Source: Desulfobacteraceae bacterium UBA2245
GTDB taxonomy: Bacteria; Desulfobacterota; Desulfobacteria; Desulfobacterales; UBA2245
Assembly: GCA_002347265.1 (NCBI GenBank)
Contig: DDYB01000032.1
Span: 86,850-150,849 of the forward strand
Length of the DNA stretch: 64,000 bases
Reading direction: 5' to 3'
The notes under the pieces were generated by a model. That model had not been told where the DNA came from. It searched no databases and saw only the letters and a list, made by a program, of their open reading frames with translations. The position numbers and the translations under genes were made by a program. Shown here in pieces: positions 8,140 through 22,356 of this stretch (positions are counted from its first letter, which is position 1; each line of letters starts with the position of its first letter).

Positions 8140-8823
8140 CTATCCTGAAATTTTTTCTCTGGCCGCATCAAAATATATGGAATCCGGATCTTCCGAAACC
8201 AATTGCTGATACGCGCTTCGGCTTTTTTCCATGTCTCCCGCCAGTTCATAAAGCCGTCCAAGGCCAAACAGGGCTTCGGATTTCATCAGGGCGCCGCCTT
8301 CGGAGACGATTCTTTCAAAATGAGCTGCCGCGTTTTTATAATCTTTTTTCGCCTCGAAGCTATAGGCTAGTCCGCTCAAAATCATGCTTTTATAAGGCTC
8401 CTGTCCGAAATCATTCAGGGCGCTTTGATACAATTTAAGCGCCTGATCGAACTGACCGGAATCATAACAGATGTCTGCATAAATCATCCGGGATATTCGG
8501 CTGGTTTCTCTGTCCGAATATTGATCCAATACCCGTTCAAAATCCTTTTTCACCGCTTGGTATGCGGCAGGGGGCCCTTCTTCGCGGGAAAGAACCTGGT
8601 ACCTTGAAAATACCTCGTACATTGCAGCGAGCGCCCGGGCCTCGGCTTTACTCGAAAAATAAGAATTTGCCGCCCACAGCGATGCGGCGGCGATCACGGC
8701 GCATATAACGCCGATAATATGCTTTTTATACCGAAAGATGACCTGCAGCATGGTGTTTGAAAACGTCATAATTTTATCTGGTTGGTCGACAAAATCTTTT
8801 AGCCCCATATTCTTCCTTTCCAT
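8140..8823 (-). CDS. Membrane-anchored TPR protein (YfgM-like)
   Basis: One N-terminal TM followed by TPR-like helices (ALFGLGRLYELAGD..KSRSAYQQL). Confidence 0.7.
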   Translation of the reverse strand: MERKNMGLKDFVDQPDKIMTFSNTMLQVIFRYKKHIIGVICAVIAAASLWAANSYFSSKAEARALAAMYEVFSRYQVLSREEGPPAAYQAVKKDFERVLDQYSDRETSRISRMIYADICYDSGQFDQALKLYQSALNDFGQEPYKSMILSGLAYSFEAKKDYKNAAAHFERIVSEGGALMKSEALFGLGRLYELAGDMEKSRSAYQQLVSEDPDSIYFDAAREKISG

Positions 8824-8872
8824 CCTTTCTTCATGGATAGATCAAATAAAATCAGCCCGCGCAGGCTGAATC

Positions 8873-9298
8873 CTACCAAACCAAAGACCGATGAATCCAG
8901 CCTTTATCGCCGTCGGCATGTTCCACTCGCAACCAGTCCCCTTTCCGCTCCGAAACCTTGAACGGAACTCCTTTTTCAACGGAAAAAAACACTTCGAAGT
9001 TTGTACCGGGACCTGACCGGATGTTGCACTTGTCTTGTACGGTGATCACCGCGTCGATTTTCCCGACAATATCCTGATGGATCCAGCCCTGGTCCCCCTC
9101 AAAGTCTCGAAAACGACGCCATTCTCCTTTTTTTTCAATTATTTCAATTGGATGGTTCTGTTCGACATTCCACAGAACCTCGTATCCCTGTCCGGGGCCC
9201 GATCGAACATTTCCGATCTGCGCTTTTACCGCCAATCGCTGCGCCATGGCGGATTGGGCACACAGTAAAACAGCTATGGCAATCAACAAACGTTTCAT
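8873..9298 (-). CDS. Exported protein with two bacterial SH3 domains
   Basis: Start placed at MKRLLIAIAVLLCAQSAMA (signal peptide). Two repeats NVRSGPG..Y.V / NIRSGPGTNFEV ... GDxGWIH. Confidence 0.85.
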   Translation of the reverse strand: MKRLLIAIAVLLCAQSAMAQRLAVKAQIGNVRSGPGQGYEVLWNVEQNHPIEIIEKKGEWRRFRDFEGDQGWIHQDIVGKIDAVITVQDKCNIRSGPGTNFEVFFSVEKGVPFKVSERKGDWLRVEHADGDKGWIHRSLVW

Positions 9299-9492
9299 CC
9301 CTGCACCTGTCACGTTGAATGTCCAATCAAATGCCTTCCTCTCCGGTTGCCTCCGGCGCCTGTGAGCGATCCTTCGGTGAAACAGGCGTTGGTCTCCCTT
9401 TGAAAGCATCAGGCGCCCGACTGGAAGCCCCGGGCAGCTATTCCCGGCGGCATCCTGAATCCTCGCATTTGATTCAAGATGTTTCCGCGCAC

Positions 9493-11682
9493 CTATCCCA
9501 AACCCAAAAGCAGCCCGCCCTGATAGACAAAAAAAGCGGCCAGCCACGCAATTCCGGTACTGTAGGCAATACTGAACGCCGTCCACTTGAACGAATTGGT
9601 CTCTTTTCGAATGGTGGTTACCGTAGCCAGGCACGGCAGATAAAGCAATACAAAAACCATCATGGAAAGCGCGGACAGAACCGTCATCCCTGAATTTTTT
9701 AACGCATGCTGCAAGGCCTCGGCAGACCTGCTTTCCACCGCATATAAAATCCCCAGGGTGCTGACAACAATTTCCTTCGCCACAAAACCGGTCATCAGCG
9801 CGATGCTTCCCCGCCAATCAATCCCGATCGGAGCAAAAACCGGTTCAATTCCTTTGCCGATCCGCCCCATATAGGATTTTTCGGCTATTTCAGCCTTTTT
9901 AGCGGCCAGCAGAACACTCAGTTCAGCCTCCAGGTTCGCGGCAAGCTCCTTTTGCCGCTGAGGATCCGCCGCTACAATCTCGCGCTCGAAATAATCCGAA
10001 ATACTGTGAATTTGCCCATCATAATCCCTTGAATATTCGATGTTCCGGGGGAAGGCCGAAAGAGACCAAACCACGATGGAACCGACCAGAATCACCCCCC
10101 CCATCTTTTTCAGAAACATCTTGCCTCGGTCCCACATGTGAATCATCAGGCTCTTGAGCATGGGAATCCGATAGGGAGGAAGCTCCATCACAAAGGGAGC
10201 ATCCTGGCCCCTCAAAAGGGTGGATCGAAACAGCCGGCCGGAAACAACAGCCATAACGATTCCCAGCAGATAAATGGAAAAAATCACGGTTCCGGCCTTG
10301 GCGGCAAAAAATGTCCCTGCCAGTACGATATAAATCGGCAGGCGGGCCGAACACGACATGAAGGGCGTGATCAAAATGGTCAGTATCCGGTCCTTTTCGC
10401 TTTCCAGGGTACGAGAGGCCATGATGGCCGGCACGCTGCATCCGAATCCCATCAGCATGGGAATAAAGGACTTTCCGTGCAGACCGATCAGGTGCATGAC
10501 CCTGTCCATGAGAAAAGCGGCCCTGGCCATATATCCCGTATCCTCGAAAAGCGCGATGCAGAAGAAGAGCAACAGGATGTTGGGTAAAAATACGACCACG
10601 CTTCCCACGCCGGCGATAATTCCGTCGAGTAAGAGCTCCTTGAAAAGACTGTCGGAAAGGGCTGCATTCAAAGACGCAGACAGCAGCCCCACGCCGCTTT
10701 CGATCCATGCCTTGGGATAGTCTCCAACCGTAAAGGTCAGCTGGAACATGGCCCAGATAAACAGGATGAAAATCGGAAAGCCGAAAAACCGATTGGTCAG
10801 CACCAGATCGATATTTCGGGATATATCCACGCGCTGCTGCGTGGTAGTGGTCAGAACCTCCTTGACGATACCGGCGATAAAACCAAAGCGTTCGTCGGTC
10901 AGCAGGATTTCGGGCTCATCGTTGAACTGGTCCGTCAATTGTTTTCTCAGCCTCTCGGCCGTATCCAGAATCCGCCTGCTGCCATTTTCCAGCTTTTCCA
11001 GGACCCGCTCCCGTATCACCTCGTCGTTTTCCAGAAGCTTGATCGCCGTCCATCGGGCATGATACGGGAATGCGGCGGTGGTGTGCTCCTGGATTTCGGC
11101 CTGAAGCTTCCCGATGGCATCCTCGATATCGGCGCTGTATCGGACTCGGCGGTTCACAACTATCGGGGTTTCTGATTCCGCAAGTTCCACGGCGGTCTTC
11201 AGCAGATTTTCCATGCCTTCTTTCTTGTTGCCGACCGTAAATACCACCGGAACATCGAGAAGTTCGGAAAGTTTCTGTGCGTCGATCTTGATTCCCCGTC
11301 TGCGCGCCAGATCGGCCATGTTCAAAACAAACACAACCTTGCAGTTGATTTCCCTCAGCTGAACGGCCAGATAAAGACTGCGCTCAAGGTTGGAAGCATC
11401 GATGATATCCACGACCACATCGGGAGATTCATTGAGCACGAAATCCCGGGCCACGATCTCTTCGATGGAATACGGGGTCAGACTGTAGGTTCCCGGTAAA
11501 TCCACGATCACCAACTCATGGCCAAACCCGCGGATAGTCCCCTCTTTTTTTTCAACGGTGACCCCAGGCCAGTTGCCCACCTTCTGCCGGGTTCCCGTGA
11601 GGTTGTTGAATACGGTCGTCTTACCAGAATTAGGATTTCCAGCCAGTGCGATGGTGATGGATTTTTCAGTTACAGCGCTCAT
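9493..11682 (-). CDS. feoB: Ferrous iron transporter B
   Basis: G1 GNPNSGKT, VGNWPGVTVE, DLPGTYSL, gate motifs GFGCSVPA and PFMSCSARLP, LYLPCLAT. Confidence 0.97.
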   Translation of the reverse strand: MSAVTEKSITIALAGNPNSGKTTVFNNLTGTRQKVGNWPGVTVEKKEGTIRGFGHELVIVDLPGTYSLTPYSIEEIVARDFVLNESPDVVVDIIDASNLERSLYLAVQLREINCKVVFVLNMADLARRRGIKIDAQKLSELLDVPVVFTVGNKKEGMENLLKTAVELAESETPIVVNRRVRYSADIEDAIGKLQAEIQEHTTAAFPYHARWTAIKLLENDEVIRERVLEKLENGSRRILDTAERLRKQLTDQFNDEPEILLTDERFGFIAGIVKEVLTTTTQQRVDISRNIDLVLTNRFFGFPIFILFIWAMFQLTFTVGDYPKAWIESGVGLLSASLNAALSDSLFKELLLDGIIAGVGSVVVFLPNILLLFFCIALFEDTGYMARAAFLMDRVMHLIGLHGKSFIPMLMGFGCSVPAIMASRTLESEKDRILTILITPFMSCSARLPIYIVLAGTFFAAKAGTVIFSIYLLGIVMAVVSGRLFRSTLLRGQDAPFVMELPPYRIPMLKSLMIHMWDRGKMFLKKMGGVILVGSIVVWSLSAFPRNIEYSRDYDGQIHSISDYFEREIVAADPQRQKELAANLEAELSVLLAAKKAEIAEKSYMGRIGKGIEPVFAPIGIDWRGSIALMTGFVAKEIVVSTLGILYAVESRSAEALQHALKNSGMTVLSALSMMVFVLLYLPCLATVTTIRKETNSFKWTAFSIAYSTGIAWLAAFFVYQGGLLLGLG

Positions 11683-11777
11683 GGGTGAACCCGAAAAGGC
11701 TTTTTGATGTCTTTTGACGCCGATTTGTTTAAAACATACTGCATGCCGCGGGCTGTTTTCGACGTCAATTTATGGAT

Positions 11778-12011
11778 TTATTCGATCAACTCGACAGTGA
11801 TATGATGGGCTTCCTCAACACGAAGGGAGATATGATATCCTTTGACAATCAACTCCACGGGGTCTTTGAGCGGAGCGTATTTTTCCACATAAATTTCCGT
11901 TCCCTTCTGAAGACCCATTTCCAGAAGCCTTCTTCTCAGAGCCCCGGTAGAACCCACATGAACGATTCTTGCCCTGCTGCCTTCCCTCATTCCACTTAAA
12001 GTCAATTCCAT
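11778..12011 (-). CDS. feoA: Ferrous iron transport protein A
   Basis: RRRLLEMGLQKGTEI.V...APLKDPVEL.VKGY.ISLR; directly upstream of feoB. Confidence 0.95.
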   Translation of the reverse strand: MELTLSGMREGSRARIVHVGSTGALRRRLLEMGLQKGTEIYVEKYAPLKDPVELIVKGYHISLRVEEAHHITVELIE

Positions 12012-12029
12012 GTTGTTCCACGTTCTGAA

Positions 12030-12707
12030 TTATTGGACCGCTTCCACCTGTATTTTCTCAGCAAGCCCTCTTCCAAGCGCAAACCGCGTTCGGTCTGCGG
12101 CGATAACCACCTGGCCCTTGCTCGAATTGGTAATCACCTCGATTTCATCCCCCACCCGCAATCCCATCGCGCTCAGTCGGACGCGCGTCGTCGTACCTCC
12201 GGTAAATTCCCTGATAATCAGGCGCTGGCCCTGTTTGGCCATCACCAGAGAAATGGATGCTTGTTGTTTGGGAAAACACTGGGAACAAAGTCCGTACAGC
12301 TCCATCTTGTGCTGAAGAATATGAAAACCGTGCCGCCCGGAAATGCGGATCTGAAGCGCCTCCATGTCGGAATCCTCAAACTCGAGAATCCGGTCGCACT
12401 TGATGCAAATCATATGATCGTGATGCTGGCCAAGATGTCTGTGTTCATATCGAACCAGGCCATTATTGAAGCGGTTCTGCTGCGCAAATCCGAAATAACA
12501 CATTAGATCAAGGGTTTGCTTGACGAAGCTTTCTTCAAAATCAACCCCCTTGTCCTTAAGAACCCCAATGAACTCTTCAAGGGTAACATGGTTTTCTATT
12601 TGCAGAAAAACATCGAGGATTCTGTAGCGATCTTCAAAATTATCCAGCTTTTCCTGCAGGAAAAGCTGCTTGAACTGTTCTTTTTCCTGTTGGTGAATCT
12701 GCTTCAT
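12030..12707 (-). CDS. Fur-family metalloregulator fused to C-terminal FeoA domain
   Basis: Fur core HHDHMICIKC...LYGLCSQC, then FeoA-like RVRLSAMGLRVGDEIEV...RFALGRGLAEKIQV. Confidence 0.85.
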   Translation of the reverse strand: MKQIHQQEKEQFKQLFLQEKLDNFEDRYRILDVFLQIENHVTLEEFIGVLKDKGVDFEESFVKQTLDLMCYFGFAQQNRFNNGLVRYEHRHLGQHHDHMICIKCDRILEFEDSDMEALQIRISGRHGFHILQHKMELYGLCSQCFPKQQASISLVMAKQGQRLIIREFTGGTTTRVRLSAMGLRVGDEIEVITNSSKGQVVIAADRTRFALGRGLAEKIQVEAVQ

Positions 12708-12834
12708 GAAGGTATCCTGTTGTTTAAAACTTTTATGAAATAATGCGAAACCATGAAATTGTCAACCAATCAGGTCAAAACAAGTTGAATACGGTATATT
12801 GAAACAAGCTTTGGATCCTTGCCGGCCGAATCCG

Positions 12835-12869
12835 AATAAAAAATCCCGGCCTGCTGTGCGCCGGGATTT
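12835..12869 (-). terminator. Rho-independent terminator after gyrB
   Basis: 10-bp stem AAATCCCGGC/GCCGGGATTT next to an A-run (U-run on minus strand); outer ATCCGAATA/TATTCGGAT pairing extends it. Confidence 0.75.
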
Positions 12870-12901
12870 CAAGTATTCGGATTAAAAAAAGAATATACAG
12901 A

Positions 12902-16416
<3,515 letters not shown>

Positions 16417-16449
16417 ACGTCAATCTCTTTAAAAAATTTAAACCTCTGG

Positions 16450-16986
16450 TTATTTTCGCTCGCTGGAGCGGATCCATTTCTGAATGTCTGGAACGATGTT
16501 CGTGCTCCATGCTTCTGAAATTCTCAAACGGATGAATCGGTTAAAAGTTTTGTCTAAAAACGAGAACAGCTTTTCATAAAGATACCCCTTTTCCAGGATG
16601 GCGCCTTCAATATCCTCCTTTTTTTCGATCGGGGCTGTATCCGGTGTTTTAAGATTGGAAATTCCAAGACTTTCTCCTTTTAAGCAAAAACGCCAGATCT
16701 GTTCTTCGGATTTGTAAGATAGGTTGATTTCGGTAACAACGGCCCCTTTTTGAAGCGCCATATATGCTTCTTCAAGTCCGGCATCATCTCCTTTGATGGT
16801 GATGGTTTCAACTGTATGCGTCAGATGGTTCTGCAGAACCAGGCGGTTTCCGATTTCAACCAGTGCGCCGGGACTCTCCGAGTCGCTCAAAATATCTTTA
16901 TCATTTTCTATAACATACCATAACCACGTAAGAAATTCATATCCAATAAACTTATAACGATTGTAGGACACCGAAACATCAAGCAT
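16450..16986 (-). CDS. Conserved protein resembling the C-terminal half of RdgC
   Basis: FIGYEFLTWLW start motif. EAYMALQKGAVVTEINL resembles the RdgC C-terminal EI..HL.AGK.VTKLAL motif. Lies 4 bp downstream of the RdgC-like gene. Confidence 0.6.
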   Translation of the reverse strand: MLDVSVSYNRYKFIGYEFLTWLWYVIENDKDILSDSESPGALVEIGNRLVLQNHLTHTVETITIKGDDAGLEEAYMALQKGAVVTEINLSYKSEEQIWRFCLKGESLGISNLKTPDTAPIEKKEDIEGAILEKGYLYEKLFSFLDKTFNRFIRLRISEAWSTNIVPDIQKWIRSSERK

Positions 16987-16990
16987 TTAT

Positions 16991-17605
16991 CTACCCCGCA
17001 AACCGGGTCGGCGTCAGCCGGGAAAGTGTGTCGCGCTGAACGGCCTCAAGACCGCAAAGCAGGTCCGCCATGGTGAAGGGAAAGTAACGGATTAAACTCA
17101 GGTTGAATGATTTAAAAAACAGGGTTTCAAATGCTTCGCAGGCGGTCTTCTGGTGGGTGAACAACCAAACCGATTCCTGTTCGTGGCTCCAGATCGCGTC
17201 ATAAACATTCGGCGTTGCCGGAATGCGCAAGGTAAGCGTTCGGATTACCTGATCCTTGATTTCTTTTTTTTCATTTCGGCTCAGAAAGGTCTTTAAATTT
17301 TTAGCAAGCCTTTTGGCGCTCTCTATTGCGAAGTTTTTTTGAACTACCTTGGCTGGAATGCTTTTTTTATCCATCCGCATGGAGAAAATCAGGTAAGGTC
17401 CTACAATCAAAGAGGATGATTCGAATTTCGGCTGAAAAGGATCGTCAAAGTCTGTCCACCCGACCACTGTGTTTGCATCTTCGCCGTCAACATCTTGAAT
17501 GACGTTTTTTTTCAAACCGGAGGTGATCGTTTCAATGACCGGATTCTGAATCCGGCCGTTGACTTTGTAGCGGGTCACAGAAACACTGGATGAAAGAAGT
17601 CCCAT
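16991..17605 (-). CDS. rdgC: Recombination-associated RdgC-like protein (N-terminal-half type)
   Basis: Start reassigned to MGLLSSSVSVTRY (ATG 17605). GWTDFDD, FSMRMDKKSIPAKVV, LSRNEKKEIKDQV..L match the RdgC N-terminal region. Confidence 0.7.
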   Translation of the reverse strand: MGLLSSSVSVTRYKVNGRIQNPVIETITSGLKKNVIQDVDGEDANTVVGWTDFDDPFQPKFESSSLIVGPYLIFSMRMDKKSIPAKVVQKNFAIESAKRLAKNLKTFLSRNEKKEIKDQVIRTLTLRIPATPNVYDAIWSHEQESVWLFTHQKTACEAFETLFFKSFNLSLIRYFPFTMADLLCGLEAVQRDTLSRLTPTRFAG

Positions 17606-17964
17606 TACCGAAAAGATTCCAATTCGCAAAATATTGTATATAATAAGAAAAAAGTTAAATATATATAGTCTCTTTGATTGTGGATTACAAGAAAATTTTC
17701 CTTTAATCCCTTTCGAAGGGCTGATATTAAAAGTTTTAATTAATTCTAATAATCTTAAAAAAAAAATCATACTAATAAATGATGTCAACAATTCTGACAA
17801 ACCAGCAAGGCACTGAATTATTAAAACAAAACAAGAAAAAAAATGTTTATAATCCTGTTTCTAAACTGTCTAAAGCCGTTGATATCCGTTAAGGATTGTT
17901 TGGTCTTGTCGATAATTCGCTGCTTATGAACAAGTTTTCAACTCAATTTTGACGACGCATCAAT
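17606..17964. other. Putative chromosomal replication origin (oriC)
   Basis: About 20-30% GC by hand count. DnaA-box-like 9-mers at 17635, 17679, 17844, 17907, 17924. Upstream of the dnaN-gyrB operon, divergent gene orientation, parS 1.3 kb away. Confidence 0.7.
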
Positions 17965-20900
17965 ATGGAATTCATTGCAGATCTACACGTGCATTCGTGC
18001 CATTCCCGGGCAACCGCCAAAGATCTTAATCTGGAAAACCTTTATATTGCCGCTCAGATCAAGGGAATTACCGTCGTCGGCACCGGAGATTTTACCCACC
18101 CGGCCTGGTTTTCCGAAATAGAGAAAAAACTTGAGCCGGCCGAAGAAGGCTTGTTCAAGCTTAAAGAAGAAATCGTCCGCATATGTGATCCGCGGGTTCC
18201 GGAGGGGCGGCGAAGACCGGTAAGATTTCTGTTATCTACCGAAATATCAAATATTTATAAAAAAAATGACCGGGTAAGAAAAAATCACAATCTCGTTTTC
18301 ATGCCGGATCTGGAATCGGCGCGAAGCTTCTCTCAGAAGCTTTCCAGAATCGGCAACATCGTATCCGACGGCAGGCCTATTCTGGGGTTGGACGCCAGAG
18401 ATCTTCTTGAAATCGTTATTGAGACCAGTGATCAGGGATTTCTGATTCCGGCCCACATCTGGACGCCCTGGTTTTCAATGTTGGGATCTAAATCCGGATT
18501 TGATTCGGTAAAGGACTGTTTCGGGGATCTGATTTCCTATATTTTTGCGGTTGAAACCGGGCTTTCGTCGGATCCGGCCATGAACTGGCGTGTGTCGGAA
18601 CTGGATGGGCTCACGCTGGTTTCGAATTCCGACGCTCATTCTCCTTCCAAACTGGGTCGGGAAGCCAATCTCTTTGATGCCGGGCTTTCTTATTCAGATA
18701 TTTTCGAGTCCTTAAAAACCGGCAAAAATTTTTGCGGGACTCTGGAATTTTATCCGGAAGAGGGTAAATATCATCTGGACGGACACAGAAATTGCGATGT
18801 TCGGCTTTGGCCCAAAAAAACAGCGGAGCTTGATGGAATCTGTCCGGTATGCCGGAAACCGTTGACCCTCGGTGTGCTGCACCGCGTGGAGGAACTGGCG
18901 GATCACGAGGATGGCCGCAAGCCTGAAAGGCATCATCCCTTTTATTCACTGGCGCCGCTTTGTGATATCTTGTCCGAAATATTCAAAGTGGGTTCCGGAT
19001 CCAAAAAGGTGCAGAACGCCTACCAGAAGATCATTTCAGACACAGGATCGGAATTGGATGTTTTGCTCAAAATTCCCATCGATCAATTGAACAGAAGCTC
19101 CATCCCGCTTTTAGGAGAAGCGGTCAGAAGAATGCGGGAAAAAGAACTGTCGATTCTGCCCGGCTATGATGGATTTTATGGGAAAATATGTATTTTTGAA
19201 CCCGGTGAACGCGAAAAAATTTTAGGCCAGCGCACCTTGTTCTCAATGGCTGGTTTGCCAGTTCAAAAAGATGCAAATGTTTCACGTGAAATCAAAAAAC
19301 CCGCATCGAAGGCTTGTGATCCGAAAAAAGAAATTTCTATCCTGACTCAGCGATTAAAATCCGAAGATCTTAATGAAGACCAAAGAGCGGCCGTCATGTG
19401 CACCGACGGGCCCATGATTATCATTGCGGGACCTGGTACGGGAAAAACCCATACTCTGACCCGCAAGATCGCATATATGATTCAGGAAAAGGATGTTCCC
19501 GCAAAAAACATACTGGCCGTGACCTTTACCAATCAGGCCGCCGGAGAAATGAAAGACAGACTCCGAAGATTGCTTCCGGATGCCTCGATGCTTCCTTTGA
19601 CCGGCACGTTTCATTCGCTTGCCTATCGGATGATTCAGGATACCTGTCCCGATTTTGTTCTGGTTGAGGAGGTGGATCGTAAGACCCTGGTTCGGGAGGC
19701 GATGGAGCGGTTTGAAAATCAGGGAGTTGCAAAGAGTCTCGAATCCGCGGACCGGATGCTTGAAGCCCTGGTTCTGGCCAAACAGAGCCTGCTGGGGCCG
19801 GAAGACGTGCTGTCAGATCTTTTTCCGGAAAATGAATGTTCGATGATTTCCGAGGTGTATCGGCAGTATGAACATCTTTTATGCCTGAATCGTCTCATGG
19901 ATTATGAAGATCTGGTGTTTAAGGCGGTCAGGCGTTTTGAAAACGAGCCGGACTTTTTAAAGACCTGTCAGAAAAGGTTTTCCTGTGTATTTGTGGACGA
20001 ATATCAGGATGTTAACTATGCGCAATACCGGTTTATTCAAGCGCTTTGTCCGGAAAATGCCAATATCACCGTGATCGGCGATCCGGATCAGGCCATTTAC
20101 GGGTTCAGAGGTTCGGATGTGCGTTATTTCGAGCGGTTTGCCGAGGATTATCCCTCGGCTCGCGTTGTTCGCCTGGGGCGGAATTATCGGTCCACTCAGA
20201 TTATTCTGGATGCCTCCCGGCAGGTGGTTCGGGCGGACGGAAAGGATGCGAACCTTCGTCTTTACTCGGGAATAAAGGGGTATCCGGCGATCGGCATTCT
20301 GGAATCACCCTCGGAAAAATCCGAGGCGGCGCTGATAGCAGGACTGATCGAAAAAACGGTGGGAGGCGCAGGTTATGATGCCGTGGATTTCGGAAGAATC
20401 GACGGCAATGAAACCGGCTCGCATATGGGATTTTCAGATTTTGCCGTATTGTACCGAACCGGGCGGCAAAGCCGGATTCTGGAGGAGTTTTTTAATCAGC
20501 GCGGAATTCCCTGTCAGGTGGTCAGCCGGGAAAAACTGTTTGACGACAGACAGGTTCGAAATCTGATTTCTTTTTTAAAAATTCTTGAGGGATGTGCGGC
20601 ATATACGGATTTCGATCGACTGATTTCAGAAAAGCTGGTTTCCGTGGGATCCGGAATATCCGGTTTGTTTAAACACTGGGCCTATTGCCGCCACCTGAAA
20701 TTTAACGAGGCCCTGACAAAAGCAAAACGGTTTCCGATTCCGGATATGACCCGGAAGGATCAGATGCGACTCTGTGAATGGTTTGAAGCTCTGGAGCGGA
20801 TGCAAAACGATATGTCCGGAAAGGTTCTGGAGGAAAAGCTGAATTTTCTGGTCCAGCATCTTCAATGGAATCGAATGGATCCGAACGGATTTCCGGAAAT

Positions 20901-21327
20901 ATTCAAAAGGCTGTTGGAAATTTCGCGCTCCCATGCACTGGATGTGCCTGGGTTTCTGGTCCACATGGGGCTTCAGAAGGATCCGGACACCTTTGACAAG
21001 CGCGCACAGAAGGTGACTCTGATGACCATGCATTCGGCAAAAGGGCTTGAATTTCCCGTTGTTTTTGTGACCGGATGCGAATCCGGCCTGATTCCCTTTG
21101 ACCGATCAGATGTCGAAGAAGAGCGCCGTTTGTTTTATGTGTCCATGACGCGGGCCCGCGAGCGGCTTTATCTTTCCTGCGCCGGCAGACGCCGGGTAAA
21201 TGGGGTGGTGGTTTCCAGAGAGCCGTCCCCCTTTCTATGCCGGATAGAGACGCATTTAAAACAGACAGCGTCTTTCTCGGGACGCAAAAAGGCAGATGCC
21301 GGTCCCATGCAGCTCAATCTGTTTTGA
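17965..21327 (+). CDS. Endonuclease Q-like PHP domain fused to UvrD/PcrA SF1 helicase
   Basis: N-term ADLHVHSCHSRAT, GTGDFTHP, PAHIWTPWFS, SNSDAHSP, EEGKYHLDGHRNC, CPVC. C-term AGPGTGKT, VDEYQD, GDPDQAIYGFRG, TMHSAKGLEF, EERRLFYVSMTRA. Confidence 0.92.
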   Translation: MEFIADLHVHSCHSRATAKDLNLENLYIAAQIKGITVVGTGDFTHPAWFSEIEKKLEPAEEGLFKLKEEIVRICDPRVPEGRRRPVRFLLSTEISNIYKKNDRVRKNHNLVFMPDLESARSFSQKLSRIGNIVSDGRPILGLDARDLLEIVIETSDQGFLIPAHIWTPWFSMLGSKSGFDSVKDCFGDLISYIFAVETGLSSDPAMNWRVSELDGLTLVSNSDAHSPSKLGREANLFDAGLSYSDIFESLKTGKNFCGTLEFYPEEGKYHLDGHRNCDVRLWPKKTAELDGICPVCRKPLTLGVLHRVEELADHEDGRKPERHHPFYSLAPLCDILSEIFKVGSGSKKVQNAYQKIISDTGSELDVLLKIPIDQLNRSSIPLLGEAVRRMREKELSILPGYDGFYGKICIFEPGEREKILGQRTLFSMAGLPVQKDANVSREIKKPASKACDPKKEISILTQRLKSEDLNEDQRAAVMCTDGPMIIIAGPGTGKTHTLTRKIAYMIQEKDVPAKNILAVTFTNQAAGEMKDRLRRLLPDASMLPLTGTFHSLAYRMIQDTCPDFVLVEEVDRKTLVREAMERFENQGVAKSLESADRMLEALVLAKQSLLGPEDVLSDLFPENECSMISEVYRQYEHLLCLNRLMDYEDLVFKAVRRFENEPDFLKTCQKRFSCVFVDEYQDVNYAQYRFIQALCPENANITVIGDPDQAIYGFRGSDVRYFERFAEDYPSARVVRLGRNYRSTQIILDASRQVVRADGKDANLRLYSGIKGYPAIGILESPSEKSEAALIAGLIEKTVGGAGYDAVDFGRIDGNETGSHMGFSDFAVLYRTGRQSRILEEFFNQRGIPCQVVSREKLFDDRQVRNLISFLKILEGCAAYTDFDRLISEKLVSVGSGISGLFKHWAYCRHLKFNEALTKAKRFPIPDMTRKDQMRLCEWFEALERMQNDMSGKVLEEKLNFLVQHLQWNRMDPNGFPEIFKRLLEISRSHALDVPGFLVHMGLQKDPDTFDKRAQKVTLMTMHSAKGLEFPVVFVTGCESGLIPFDRSDVEEERRLFYVSMTRARERLYLSCAGRRRVNGVVVSREPSPFLCRIETHLKQTASFSGRKKADAGPMQLNLF
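19278..19293. promoter_or_regulatory. parS centromere-like site
   Basis: TGTTTCACGTGAAATC, a 14/16 match to consensus TGTTTCACGTGAAACA, within the EndoQ-UvrD linker. Confidence 0.75.
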
Positions 21328-21380
21328 AGATCGAACGGTGAAAAAATAACTGCACGATGCCAAAAGAAAGGAACGGCAAT

Positions 21381-21767
21381 ATGGCTGAAACACTGATGGG
21401 GTCTCACAGTCTTTCCAATGGCCTTGTTCTTGAAATTTTTGATGGATCGCGTAAAATTGCAGCGGATCGCTGGCAGATTTTGATTAAAACACGAATTCGA
21501 ATTCCGATTTCCGATGGTTTGCTCGGGGAAGATACCGAAAAAATTAGAAAAGCTTTGGGTGCATCCGTTGTTTTTGAAAAAAAAGAGGTTCGAAATTTTA
21601 TTGATGAAAATCAAAAGGATGATATTGTTAACTCAATATGCGAGGTTATCAAAGCATACGGTCTTTCTTATTATGCCCACCCCCAATTCGGGTTGCGGTA
21701 TGTTTTGAAAGCTTACCGGGAGTATGAAAGTGCGGCCATTCGAAATTCCAGAGTATCCTATGAATAG
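21381..21767 (+). CDS. Hypothetical protein
   Basis: 128-aa ORF with AAAGGA upstream of ATG 21381; fills the gap between helicase and Slt genes; no motif recognised. Confidence 0.7.
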   Translation: MAETLMGSHSLSNGLVLEIFDGSRKIAADRWQILIKTRIRIPISDGLLGEDTEKIRKALGASVVFEKKEVRNFIDENQKDDIVNSICEVIKAYGLSYYAHPQFGLRYVLKAYREYESAAIRNSRVSYE

Positions 21768-22356
21768 AGCCATATTAATAACCGGAAGTTTTGTCTGGAT
21801 CGTTTTCTTTTCACTGATGGCGCTGTATGGAACCGCGCGGGCCGATATATATAAATATATCGACAGTCAGGGAGTGCTTCACTTTACCAATGCGCCTACC
21901 AATGGACGTCAATGGCGCGTGTATTTAAGGGAAAATACGGCCAGGGTCTCCGGCCGTGAAAAGAGGGTCATCAGTCTGTATGACGATCTGATCAACGAGG
22001 CGGCCGTAACGCATGGTGTGAAATTTTCCCTTTTAAAGGCCCTGATCAAGGTGGAATCGGATTTCAATCCCGATGCGTTATCACCCAAGGGTGCGATGGG
22101 TTTGACCCAGATCATGCCGGAAACGGCCAAAATCCTTCGGATTCAGGATCCTTTTGATCCATCGGAAAACATCATGGGGGGTGCGCGCTACCTCAAGCAG
22201 ATGATCGAGCGTTTCGGCGGAGAGCTTCACCTGGCTCTGGCTGCTTACAATGCCGGACCCAAGGCGGTAGAGCGTTATCAGCGGATTCCCCCCATTCCGG
22301 AAACCGAAAATTATGTCGAAAGGGTGATGCGTTACTATGATGCCTATCGACAATGA
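21760..22356 (+). CDS. Lytic transglycosylase (SLT domain) with N-terminal DUF4124-like segment
   Basis: Signal/TM, then ADIYKYIDSQGVLHFTNAP; catalytic IKVESDFNP, GAMGLTQIMPET, ALAAYNAGP, ETENYV. Confidence 0.9.
   Translation: MNRAILITGSFVWIVFFSLMALYGTARADIYKYIDSQGVLHFTNAPTNGRQWRVYLRENTARVSGREKRVISLYDDLINEAAVTHGVKFSLLKALIKVESDFNPDALSPKGAMGLTQIMPETAKILRIQDPFDPSENIMGGARYLKQMIERFGGELHLALAAYNAGPKAVERYQRIPPIPETENYVERVMRYYDAYRQ

Follow-up and report, generated by a model that had tools for sequence, protein, structure and literature searches.

In bacteria, the default expectation is a replication origin (oriC) beside dnaA. The oriC of Escherichia coli (gidA-mioC) departs from it, being located 42 kb from dnaA; in this case, dnaA stays with dnaN and the origin has moved. 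The canonical intergenic oriC between dnaA and dnaN is represented by Bacillus subtilis incC, Mycobacterium, and oriC2 of the Epsilonproteobacteria (PMC5043019). A third arrangement, a dnaN-linked oriC with dnaA elsewhere, was predicted with Ori-Finder and is listed in DoriC for cyanobacteria (Synechococcus, Prochlorococcus, Microcystis) and for Sorangium cellulosum, with species-specific DnaA boxes, TTTTCCACA in cyanobacteria and TTATCCCCC in Sorangium; the dnaN-linked origin is established for cyanobacteria and predicted for S. cellulosum (PMC2650636). Our literature search found no paper on oriC in Desulfobacterales or Desulfobacterota, and a search by the box sequences given below returned nothing on the box in Desulfobacterales.

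The analyzed window is a stretch of 64,000 nucleotides (G000:C24:86850-150849) from the 3.1-Mb genome of a Desulfobacterales bacterium, available as a 35-contig draft in which C24 is a 387-kb contig. A preliminary description of this DNA had proposed that a 359-bp spacer of about 20-30% GC is an oriC uncoupled from dnaA. The spacer is indeed 359 bp long, is non-coding, and separates two divergent gene starts (Table 1). Its GC content is 27.9% versus 51% for the window, which makes it the second-lowest-GC 300-bp window across the 3.1 Mb. No other locus of the genome makes as good a candidate for the origin, based on the GC skew, AT-richness, clustering of a lineage-specific box motif, the proximity of a parS site, and the sequences and skew profiles of relatives. 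We estimate at about 0.8 the probability that it is the DnaA-dependent chromosomal replication origin of this bacterium.

Table 1. Features of the candidate origin and its surroundings, in window coordinates.
Feature	Position	Strand	Description
gyrB	12902-15304	-	Pfam DNA_gyraseB, Toprim, HATPase_c
dnaN (sliding clamp)	15301-16416	-	all three Pfam beta-clamp domains
178-aa gene (hyp178)	16450-16986	-	no Pfam match; conserved beside rdgC in relatives
rdgC-like gene	16991-17605	-	Pfam RdgC, E = 3.8e-8; first gene of the rdgC-hyp178-dnaN-gyrB string
Candidate oriC	17606-17964		AT-richness, contig GC-skew minimum, top TTATNNACA cluster in the genome
Left module	17606-17725		conservation above coding-sequence level; holds boxes 17635 and 17679 and an inverted repeat, 17682-17709
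Box TGTATATAA	17635-17643	-	reads TTATATACA on the - strand; kept in L008
Box TGTGGATTA	17679-17687	-	reads TAATCCACA on the - strand; differs from the E. coli consensus at one position; kept in L008
Candidate DNA unwinding element	17723-17783		least stable 60 bp in 15001-21000 (nearest-neighbour energy)
Box TGTTTATAA	17844-17852	-	reads TTATAAACA; inside block ATGTTTATAATCCTGTTT, conserved in L008
Box TGTCGATAA	17907-17915	-	reads TTATCGACA; forms the left arm of an inverted pair, CTTGTCGATAA-N8-TTATGAACAAG
Box TTATGAACA	17924-17932	+	of the type present in 9 copies in the spacer of G045
Conserved block TTTTCAACTCAATTTTGACGA	17935-17955		identical in L008
PHP-UvrD gene	17965-21327	+	PHP-type N-terminal part fused to a UvrD-family helicase, 1120 aa; Pfam UvrD-helicase, UvrD_C; first rightward gene
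parS-like site TGTTTCACGTGAAATC	19278-19293		14/16 positions; 0.05 chance matches expected; 1.7 kb from the spacer
orf136	21357-21767	+	small rightward gene after PHP-UvrD
orf210	21724-22356	+	small rightward gene after orf136

The spacer lies upstream of dnaN in the same gene string, at a distance of 1.2 kb and with two small genes between them; further left, beyond gyrB, Fur-FeoA and FeoB are also encoded leftward. All genes from 8140 to 17605 point leftward and 68% of the coding bases to the right of the spacer are on the plus strand, matching the divergence read from the open reading frames in the preliminary description (leftward from 8.1 to 17.6 kb, mostly rightward afterwards). Over the two sides, with 57% minus on the left and 68% plus on the right, gene orientation agrees only loosely with an origin. 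The protein encoded by dnaN shares 88% identity with its counterpart in the MAG AnMBR.bin530 (L008, a same-genus genome), and the closest named relatives are uncultured Desulfobacterales. The pair formed by the rdgC-like and 178-aa genes is kept at the head of dnaN in L008, L009, G049, G075, and G074, while the PHP-UvrD gene flanks the spacer also in G075, G074, and G014. The match of the rdgC-like gene to Pfam RdgC is confined to the first half of the model (profile positions 9-156 of 298). The ATG of PHP-UvrD at 17965 is not preceded by a Shine-Dalgarno-like sequence (17945-17967), and the start may be leaderless or misplaced.

The parS-like site, already noticed in the preliminary description, was recovered, and only two good parS sites exist genome-wide, both on C24, 1.7 kb and 36 kb from the spacer. 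The sole perfect parS of the genome (TGTTTCACGTGAAACA) is the latter, at C24:68630, 36 kb left of the spacer and 18 kb left of the window start. The parB gene is found on contig C5.

GC skew was judged contig by contig, as the 35-contig draft gives no whole-chromosome curve. The cumulative G-C of the 387-kb contig falls over 104 kb, reaches its minimum in the 5-kb bin of the spacer, and then rises over about 224 kb; in the window, the sign of the skew changes between 16-18 kb and 17-19 kb. The shift is present in the genes of both strands, from -0.016 on the left to +0.044 on the right of the spacer for plus-strand genes and from -0.035 to +0.026 for minus-strand genes, and is therefore not a coding-strand effect. 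The skew flip that three 60-bp samples had hinted at is thus real and much stronger than those samples suggested.

Smaller V-shaped turns of the skew occur elsewhere in the assembly, on C11 at 164 kb and on C32 at 164 kb. The origin might instead be located at one of them, chiefly at the C11 turn, 38 kb from dnaA, in which case the turn at the spacer would be a rearrangement scar. Several turning points in the assembly imply that rearrangements or mis-joins exist, the C11 skew falls over 126 kb before rising over the last 11 kb, and a 29%-GC window is found at C11:166983-167282. However, the rise spans only these 11 kb versus 224 kb at the spacer, the turn falls on a 379-aa ORF (transposase by eye) followed by a coding island of 34-37% GC with no intergenic AT tract, and the 29%-GC window is devoid of boxes of the lineage motif TTATNNACA introduced below; the C32 turn has neither an AT-rich tract nor boxes. 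We consider an origin at either turn very unlikely. The segment C11:164966-168400, comprising this ORF and the island at the local skew turn, looks acquired.

The preliminary description had inferred that dnaA moved elsewhere, and the gene is indeed found away from the spacer. A single dnaA is encoded at C11:125879-127219, on a 175-kb contig, and is separated from the spacer by at least ~150 kb, as calculated from the positions of both on their contigs. There is no skew switch at this gene: every 5-kb bin of C11 between 40 and 165 kb has negative skew, an unbroken stretch that extends 80 kb to one side of dnaA and 40 kb to the other. The gap upstream of dnaA measures 387 bp with ~39% GC and holds one box and one near-box, arranged as the pair TTATCAACA-N3-TGTTGACAA. 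An origin flanking dnaA, as in most bacteria, is the default expectation; the box pair would suit it, as would the relative G059, whose skew switch interval includes dnaA. Against it stand the unbroken negative skew across the gene, at 126-127 kb of C11, the ~39% GC and the single box with one near-box of the upstream gap, and the single skew sign on both sides of dnaA in four other relatives (G049, G075, G067, and G074), and we regard this location as extremely improbable.

The 500 bp upstream of dnaA were surveyed across the order in 30 genomes (L164-L192, together with G000:C11:127220-127719). In 13 of the 30, a TGTTNATAA box occurs ~200-240 bp upstream of dnaA, always in the same orientation. 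This box is likely an autoregulatory DnaA site of the lineage-specific type. Such a site is the expected signature of dnaA autoregulation, and its presence ties the motif to DnaA.

All five candidate DnaA boxes in the spacer had been named in the preliminary description, and each was found in place. Two of the five, TGTGGATTA and TGTCGATAA, fall within one mismatch of TTATCCACA, but 34 other 500-bp windows across the genome also hold two such hits; by the canonical criterion, the box count of the spacer is not above chance. A perfect TTATNCACA box is absent from the spacer, and perfect TTATCCACA boxes number 5 in 3.1 Mb, with no canonical cluster anywhere. Clustering of canonical boxes does not discriminate and was dropped as a genome-wide criterion. 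The apparent top canonical cluster, C29:23799-25011, was rejected as a repeat array with a 64-bp period, probably CRISPR. This array, outside the window, consists of ~20 units, each with TTATCCCCA, and mimics a DnaA-box cluster in naive scans.

A different picture emerges with the lineage motif TTATNNACA, which was fixed after the spacer and the spacers of relatives had been seen. Four of the five boxes qualify and lie within 290 bp, while the maximum elsewhere in the genome is two, a comparison made with a motif set post hoc. Four TTATNNACA boxes were reached in none of 20,000 dinucleotide-preserving shuffles (mean 0.14); as the motif was chosen post hoc, this partly post hoc test is supportive but not clean. 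No TTATNNACA box was detected in the other very AT-rich windows (C14:140642, C31:644, C28:11001, C8:64451, C11:166983, C26:81304, C8:189054, and C20:65313). These windows were rejected as origins for this reason, and C14:140642 is moreover located on a contig whose skew falls monotonically. Judging from these sequences, the spacer boxes appear better read as a lineage-specific, TTATNAACA-like DnaA box than as degenerate E. coli boxes. With a local box of this kind, prediction software whose scoring relies on E. coli-type boxes will under-call the origins of Desulfobacterales.

Comparison with L008 reveals a modular organization of the spacer. The left 120 bp share 95% identity with this relative, exceeding the 86-88% of the flanking genes, and all boxes of the spacer are kept, whereas the AT-rich center is the least conserved part (65-75% identity). 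Within this center, the 40-mer 17724-17763 has a GC content of 7.5%, and a computational stability scan of 15001-21000, about 3 kb either side of the spacer, placed the least stable segment there. Conserved flanks that putatively bind protein, combined with a freely drifting and easily melted center, should be the pattern expected of an origin. A regular-expression scan of both strands of 17550-18020 for a DnaA-trio array (at least four repeats of [T/A]A[G/A]) found none. An RNA locus was also considered for the spacer and rejected, as the Rfam scan gave no RNA match at E <= 1. Scans of the spacer for promoters and terminators did not exceed shuffled sequences.

Many families of the order share the gene layout orf210<-orf136<-(PHP-UvrD<-)spacer->rdgC->hyp178->dnaN->gyrB, and the orthologous spacers of relatives carry dense clusters of TTATGAACA, TTATCAACA, or TTATGCACA. 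There are five copies of TTATGCACA within 90 bp in L009, nine copies of TTATGAACA, several as palindromic pairs, in G045, and ten boxes of TTAT[CGT][AG]ACA in G070; upstream of dnaN in G067, the TGTTNATAA box occurs four times. In the outgroup MAG L013, where dnaA adjoins dnaN, six canonical TTATNCACA boxes and none of the variant type are found upstream of dnaA. The GAACA...TGTTC palindromes of G045 were also considered as LexA boxes of the Cheo type, in which the half-sites are spaced by N4; this was rejected, the spacing being N8.

The skew of relatives was computed from sampled 20-kb pieces, in five genomes with long contigs. In G049, assembled as one contig of 4.455 Mb, a positive arm of the skew runs from 0 to ~2.25 Mb and a negative one from ~2.5 to 4.45 Mb, with the switch at ~1-4 kb and dnaA at 1.23 Mb, inside the positive arm. 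This switch, 36 kb away from dnaN, falls on the spacer upstream of the orf136 homologue, and that spacer carries a block homologous to the window spacer. A TTATGAACAAG box is found in this spacer, at the skew minimum, and is followed by the block TTCAAACTCAACTTTCGG, which is similar to TTTTCAACTCAATTTTGACGA. In G075 (contig C2), with synteny exactly as in the window, the minimum is within 2 kb of the rdgC/PHP-UvrD spacer, and the sign of the skew does not change across dnaA, nor around a distant orf136 copy. In G067 (contig C1), a local V falls exactly at dnaN when two islands of low GC are left out of account, and again one sign is seen on both sides of dnaA. In G074 (contig C5), the minimum is ~5-7 kb from the spacer and the skew is positive on both sides of dnaA, as judged from a single 20-kb sample.

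In none of these four genomes does the skew switch at dnaA. The fifth, G059 (contig C1), has a chaotic skew with a negative-to-positive switch somewhere in 3.1-3.6 Mb, an interval that holds dnaA and not dnaN, and is an ambiguous exception. In G049, G017, and G059, which represent three families, the orf136 homologue and dnaN are not divergent neighbors but converge across a distance of 36-47 kb. Such an arrangement suggests that a rearrangement, recurrent or shared, had its breakpoint at the origin spacer. In G059 (L125:16500-17695), a ~500-bp, 25%-GC segment with TGTTAATAA and TTATTGACA boxes is tandemly duplicated upstream of dnaN.

The same data bear on whether the spacer is only a divergent promoter or regulatory region, in which DnaA boxes tune rdgC-dnaN-gyrB and PHP-UvrD while replication starts elsewhere. 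Replication genes are commonly regulated by DnaA boxes, and dnaA itself has similar upstream boxes without a skew switch; in G049, moreover, the switch is not beside dnaN. The spacer cluster, with its 4-5 degenerate boxes, is also far thinner than those of G045, G070, and L009. A purely regulatory role, however, leaves the contig skew minimum at the spacer unexplained, together with the same coincidence in G075, G067, and G074 and the nearby parS, and the number of sigma-70-like sites (2 versus 1.9 in shuffles) does not point to a promoter. We judge it unlikely.

With the spacer taken as the origin, we hypothesize that initiation could proceed as follows. DnaA, made from a gene at least ~150 kb away, would bind the five 9-mers of the lineage type TTATNNACA, two of them in the left module (17635, 17679) and three in the right module (17844, 17907, 17924). 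The DnaA oligomer would then melt the 60-bp, almost pure A+T tract between the modules, with 17723-17783 as the putative unwinding site. Upon firing, forks would depart both ways, the leftward one moving in the direction of rdgC-dnaN-gyrB transcription and the rightward one in that of PHP-UvrD.

The unusual box has a possible counterpart in the initiator itself. To our knowledge, G-G-R-D-H-T-T-V-L-H is the near-universal form of the DnaA base-contact helix. The DNA-reading helix of DnaA is F-N-R-Y-H-A-T-A-L-H in this genome and in all 24 relatives of the order in which it was readable, whereas G-G/D-R-D-H-T-T-V-L/I/M-H is found in E. coli (1J1V), B. subtilis (8BTG), Aquifex, and the outgroup that has canonical boxes. 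Numbered as in E. coli, the replacements are D433Y, T435A, and V437A, together with a shortening of the motif by one residue. Base-specific contacts of DnaA are made by residues 432-435 and 438-439 (PMC5043019). At position 6 of the box, the candidate origins of the order have A in 25 cases, G in 9, C in 6, and T in 2, and the replacement of Asp433 and Thr435 may be the reason for the predominance of A. The changed reading helix would offer a natural case of how the DNA specificity of an initiator can shift.

The separation of dnaA from dnaN is not peculiar to this bacterium. Among the 73 Desulfobacterales genomes in which both genes were found, dnaA is within 5 kb of dnaN in none; in 8, the two genes share a contig and are 93 kb to 3.2 Mb apart, and in 65 they are on different contigs. 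In the rest of the phylum, dnaA adjoins dnaN in 60 of 86 genomes, and for this reason a dnaA-dnaN oriC is probably the ancestral state. The 26 non-adjacent genomes outside the order are those with the DnaA most like that of this bacterium (36-45% identity), which indicates that the split predates the order. The split is thus an ancient trait of the order and of a wider clade of the phylum, and not a local rearrangement of this genome. The idea that the origin stayed with dnaN while dnaA moved away fits these data as an ancient event, but the preliminary description had viewed it for this DNA alone, and the separation is common to 73 of 73 genomes of the order.

We tentatively propose, at somewhat less than even odds, that the DnaA of Desulfobacterales reads a different box and that two changes, one being that position 6 lost its canonical C and the other the ancient separation of dnaA from the origin, arose in the same clade and are linked. 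An initiator with relaxed specificity might no longer need to be made beside its target. In practical terms, the spacer at the head of rdgC-dnaN-gyrB provides an annotation anchor and a concrete origin candidate that can be tested in an order whose sulfate reducers matter to the environment.

In comparison with the known systems, the locus combines features of all three. As in the canonical dnaA-dnaN oriC, the candidate is positioned at the head of the dnaN-gyrB string and has candidate DnaA boxes and an AT-rich tract suited to unwinding; in contrast, dnaA is absent from the locus, with the rdgC-like gene in its place, and neither canonical boxes nor a DnaA-trio array of the B. subtilis incC type are found. 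With E. coli oriC it shares the uncoupling from dnaA, the location between divergent genes, and a dnaA with its own autoregulatory boxes, predicted in the present case; here, however, it is dnaA that is set apart, while the origin remains beside dnaN. The closest resemblance in layout is to cyanobacteria and Sorangium, where an intergenic AT-rich origin candidate near dnaN and not dnaA was likewise found by strand asymmetry and a species-specific box. Unlike in those systems, the rdgC-like and 178-aa genes lie between dnaN and the spacer, the box has A, sometimes G, at position 6 instead of C, and the separation spans a whole order (none of 73 genomes with adjacent genes) and part of Desulfobacterota. 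A dnaN-linked origin with dnaA elsewhere is therefore an arrangement already known, extended here to a whole order with an unusual box.
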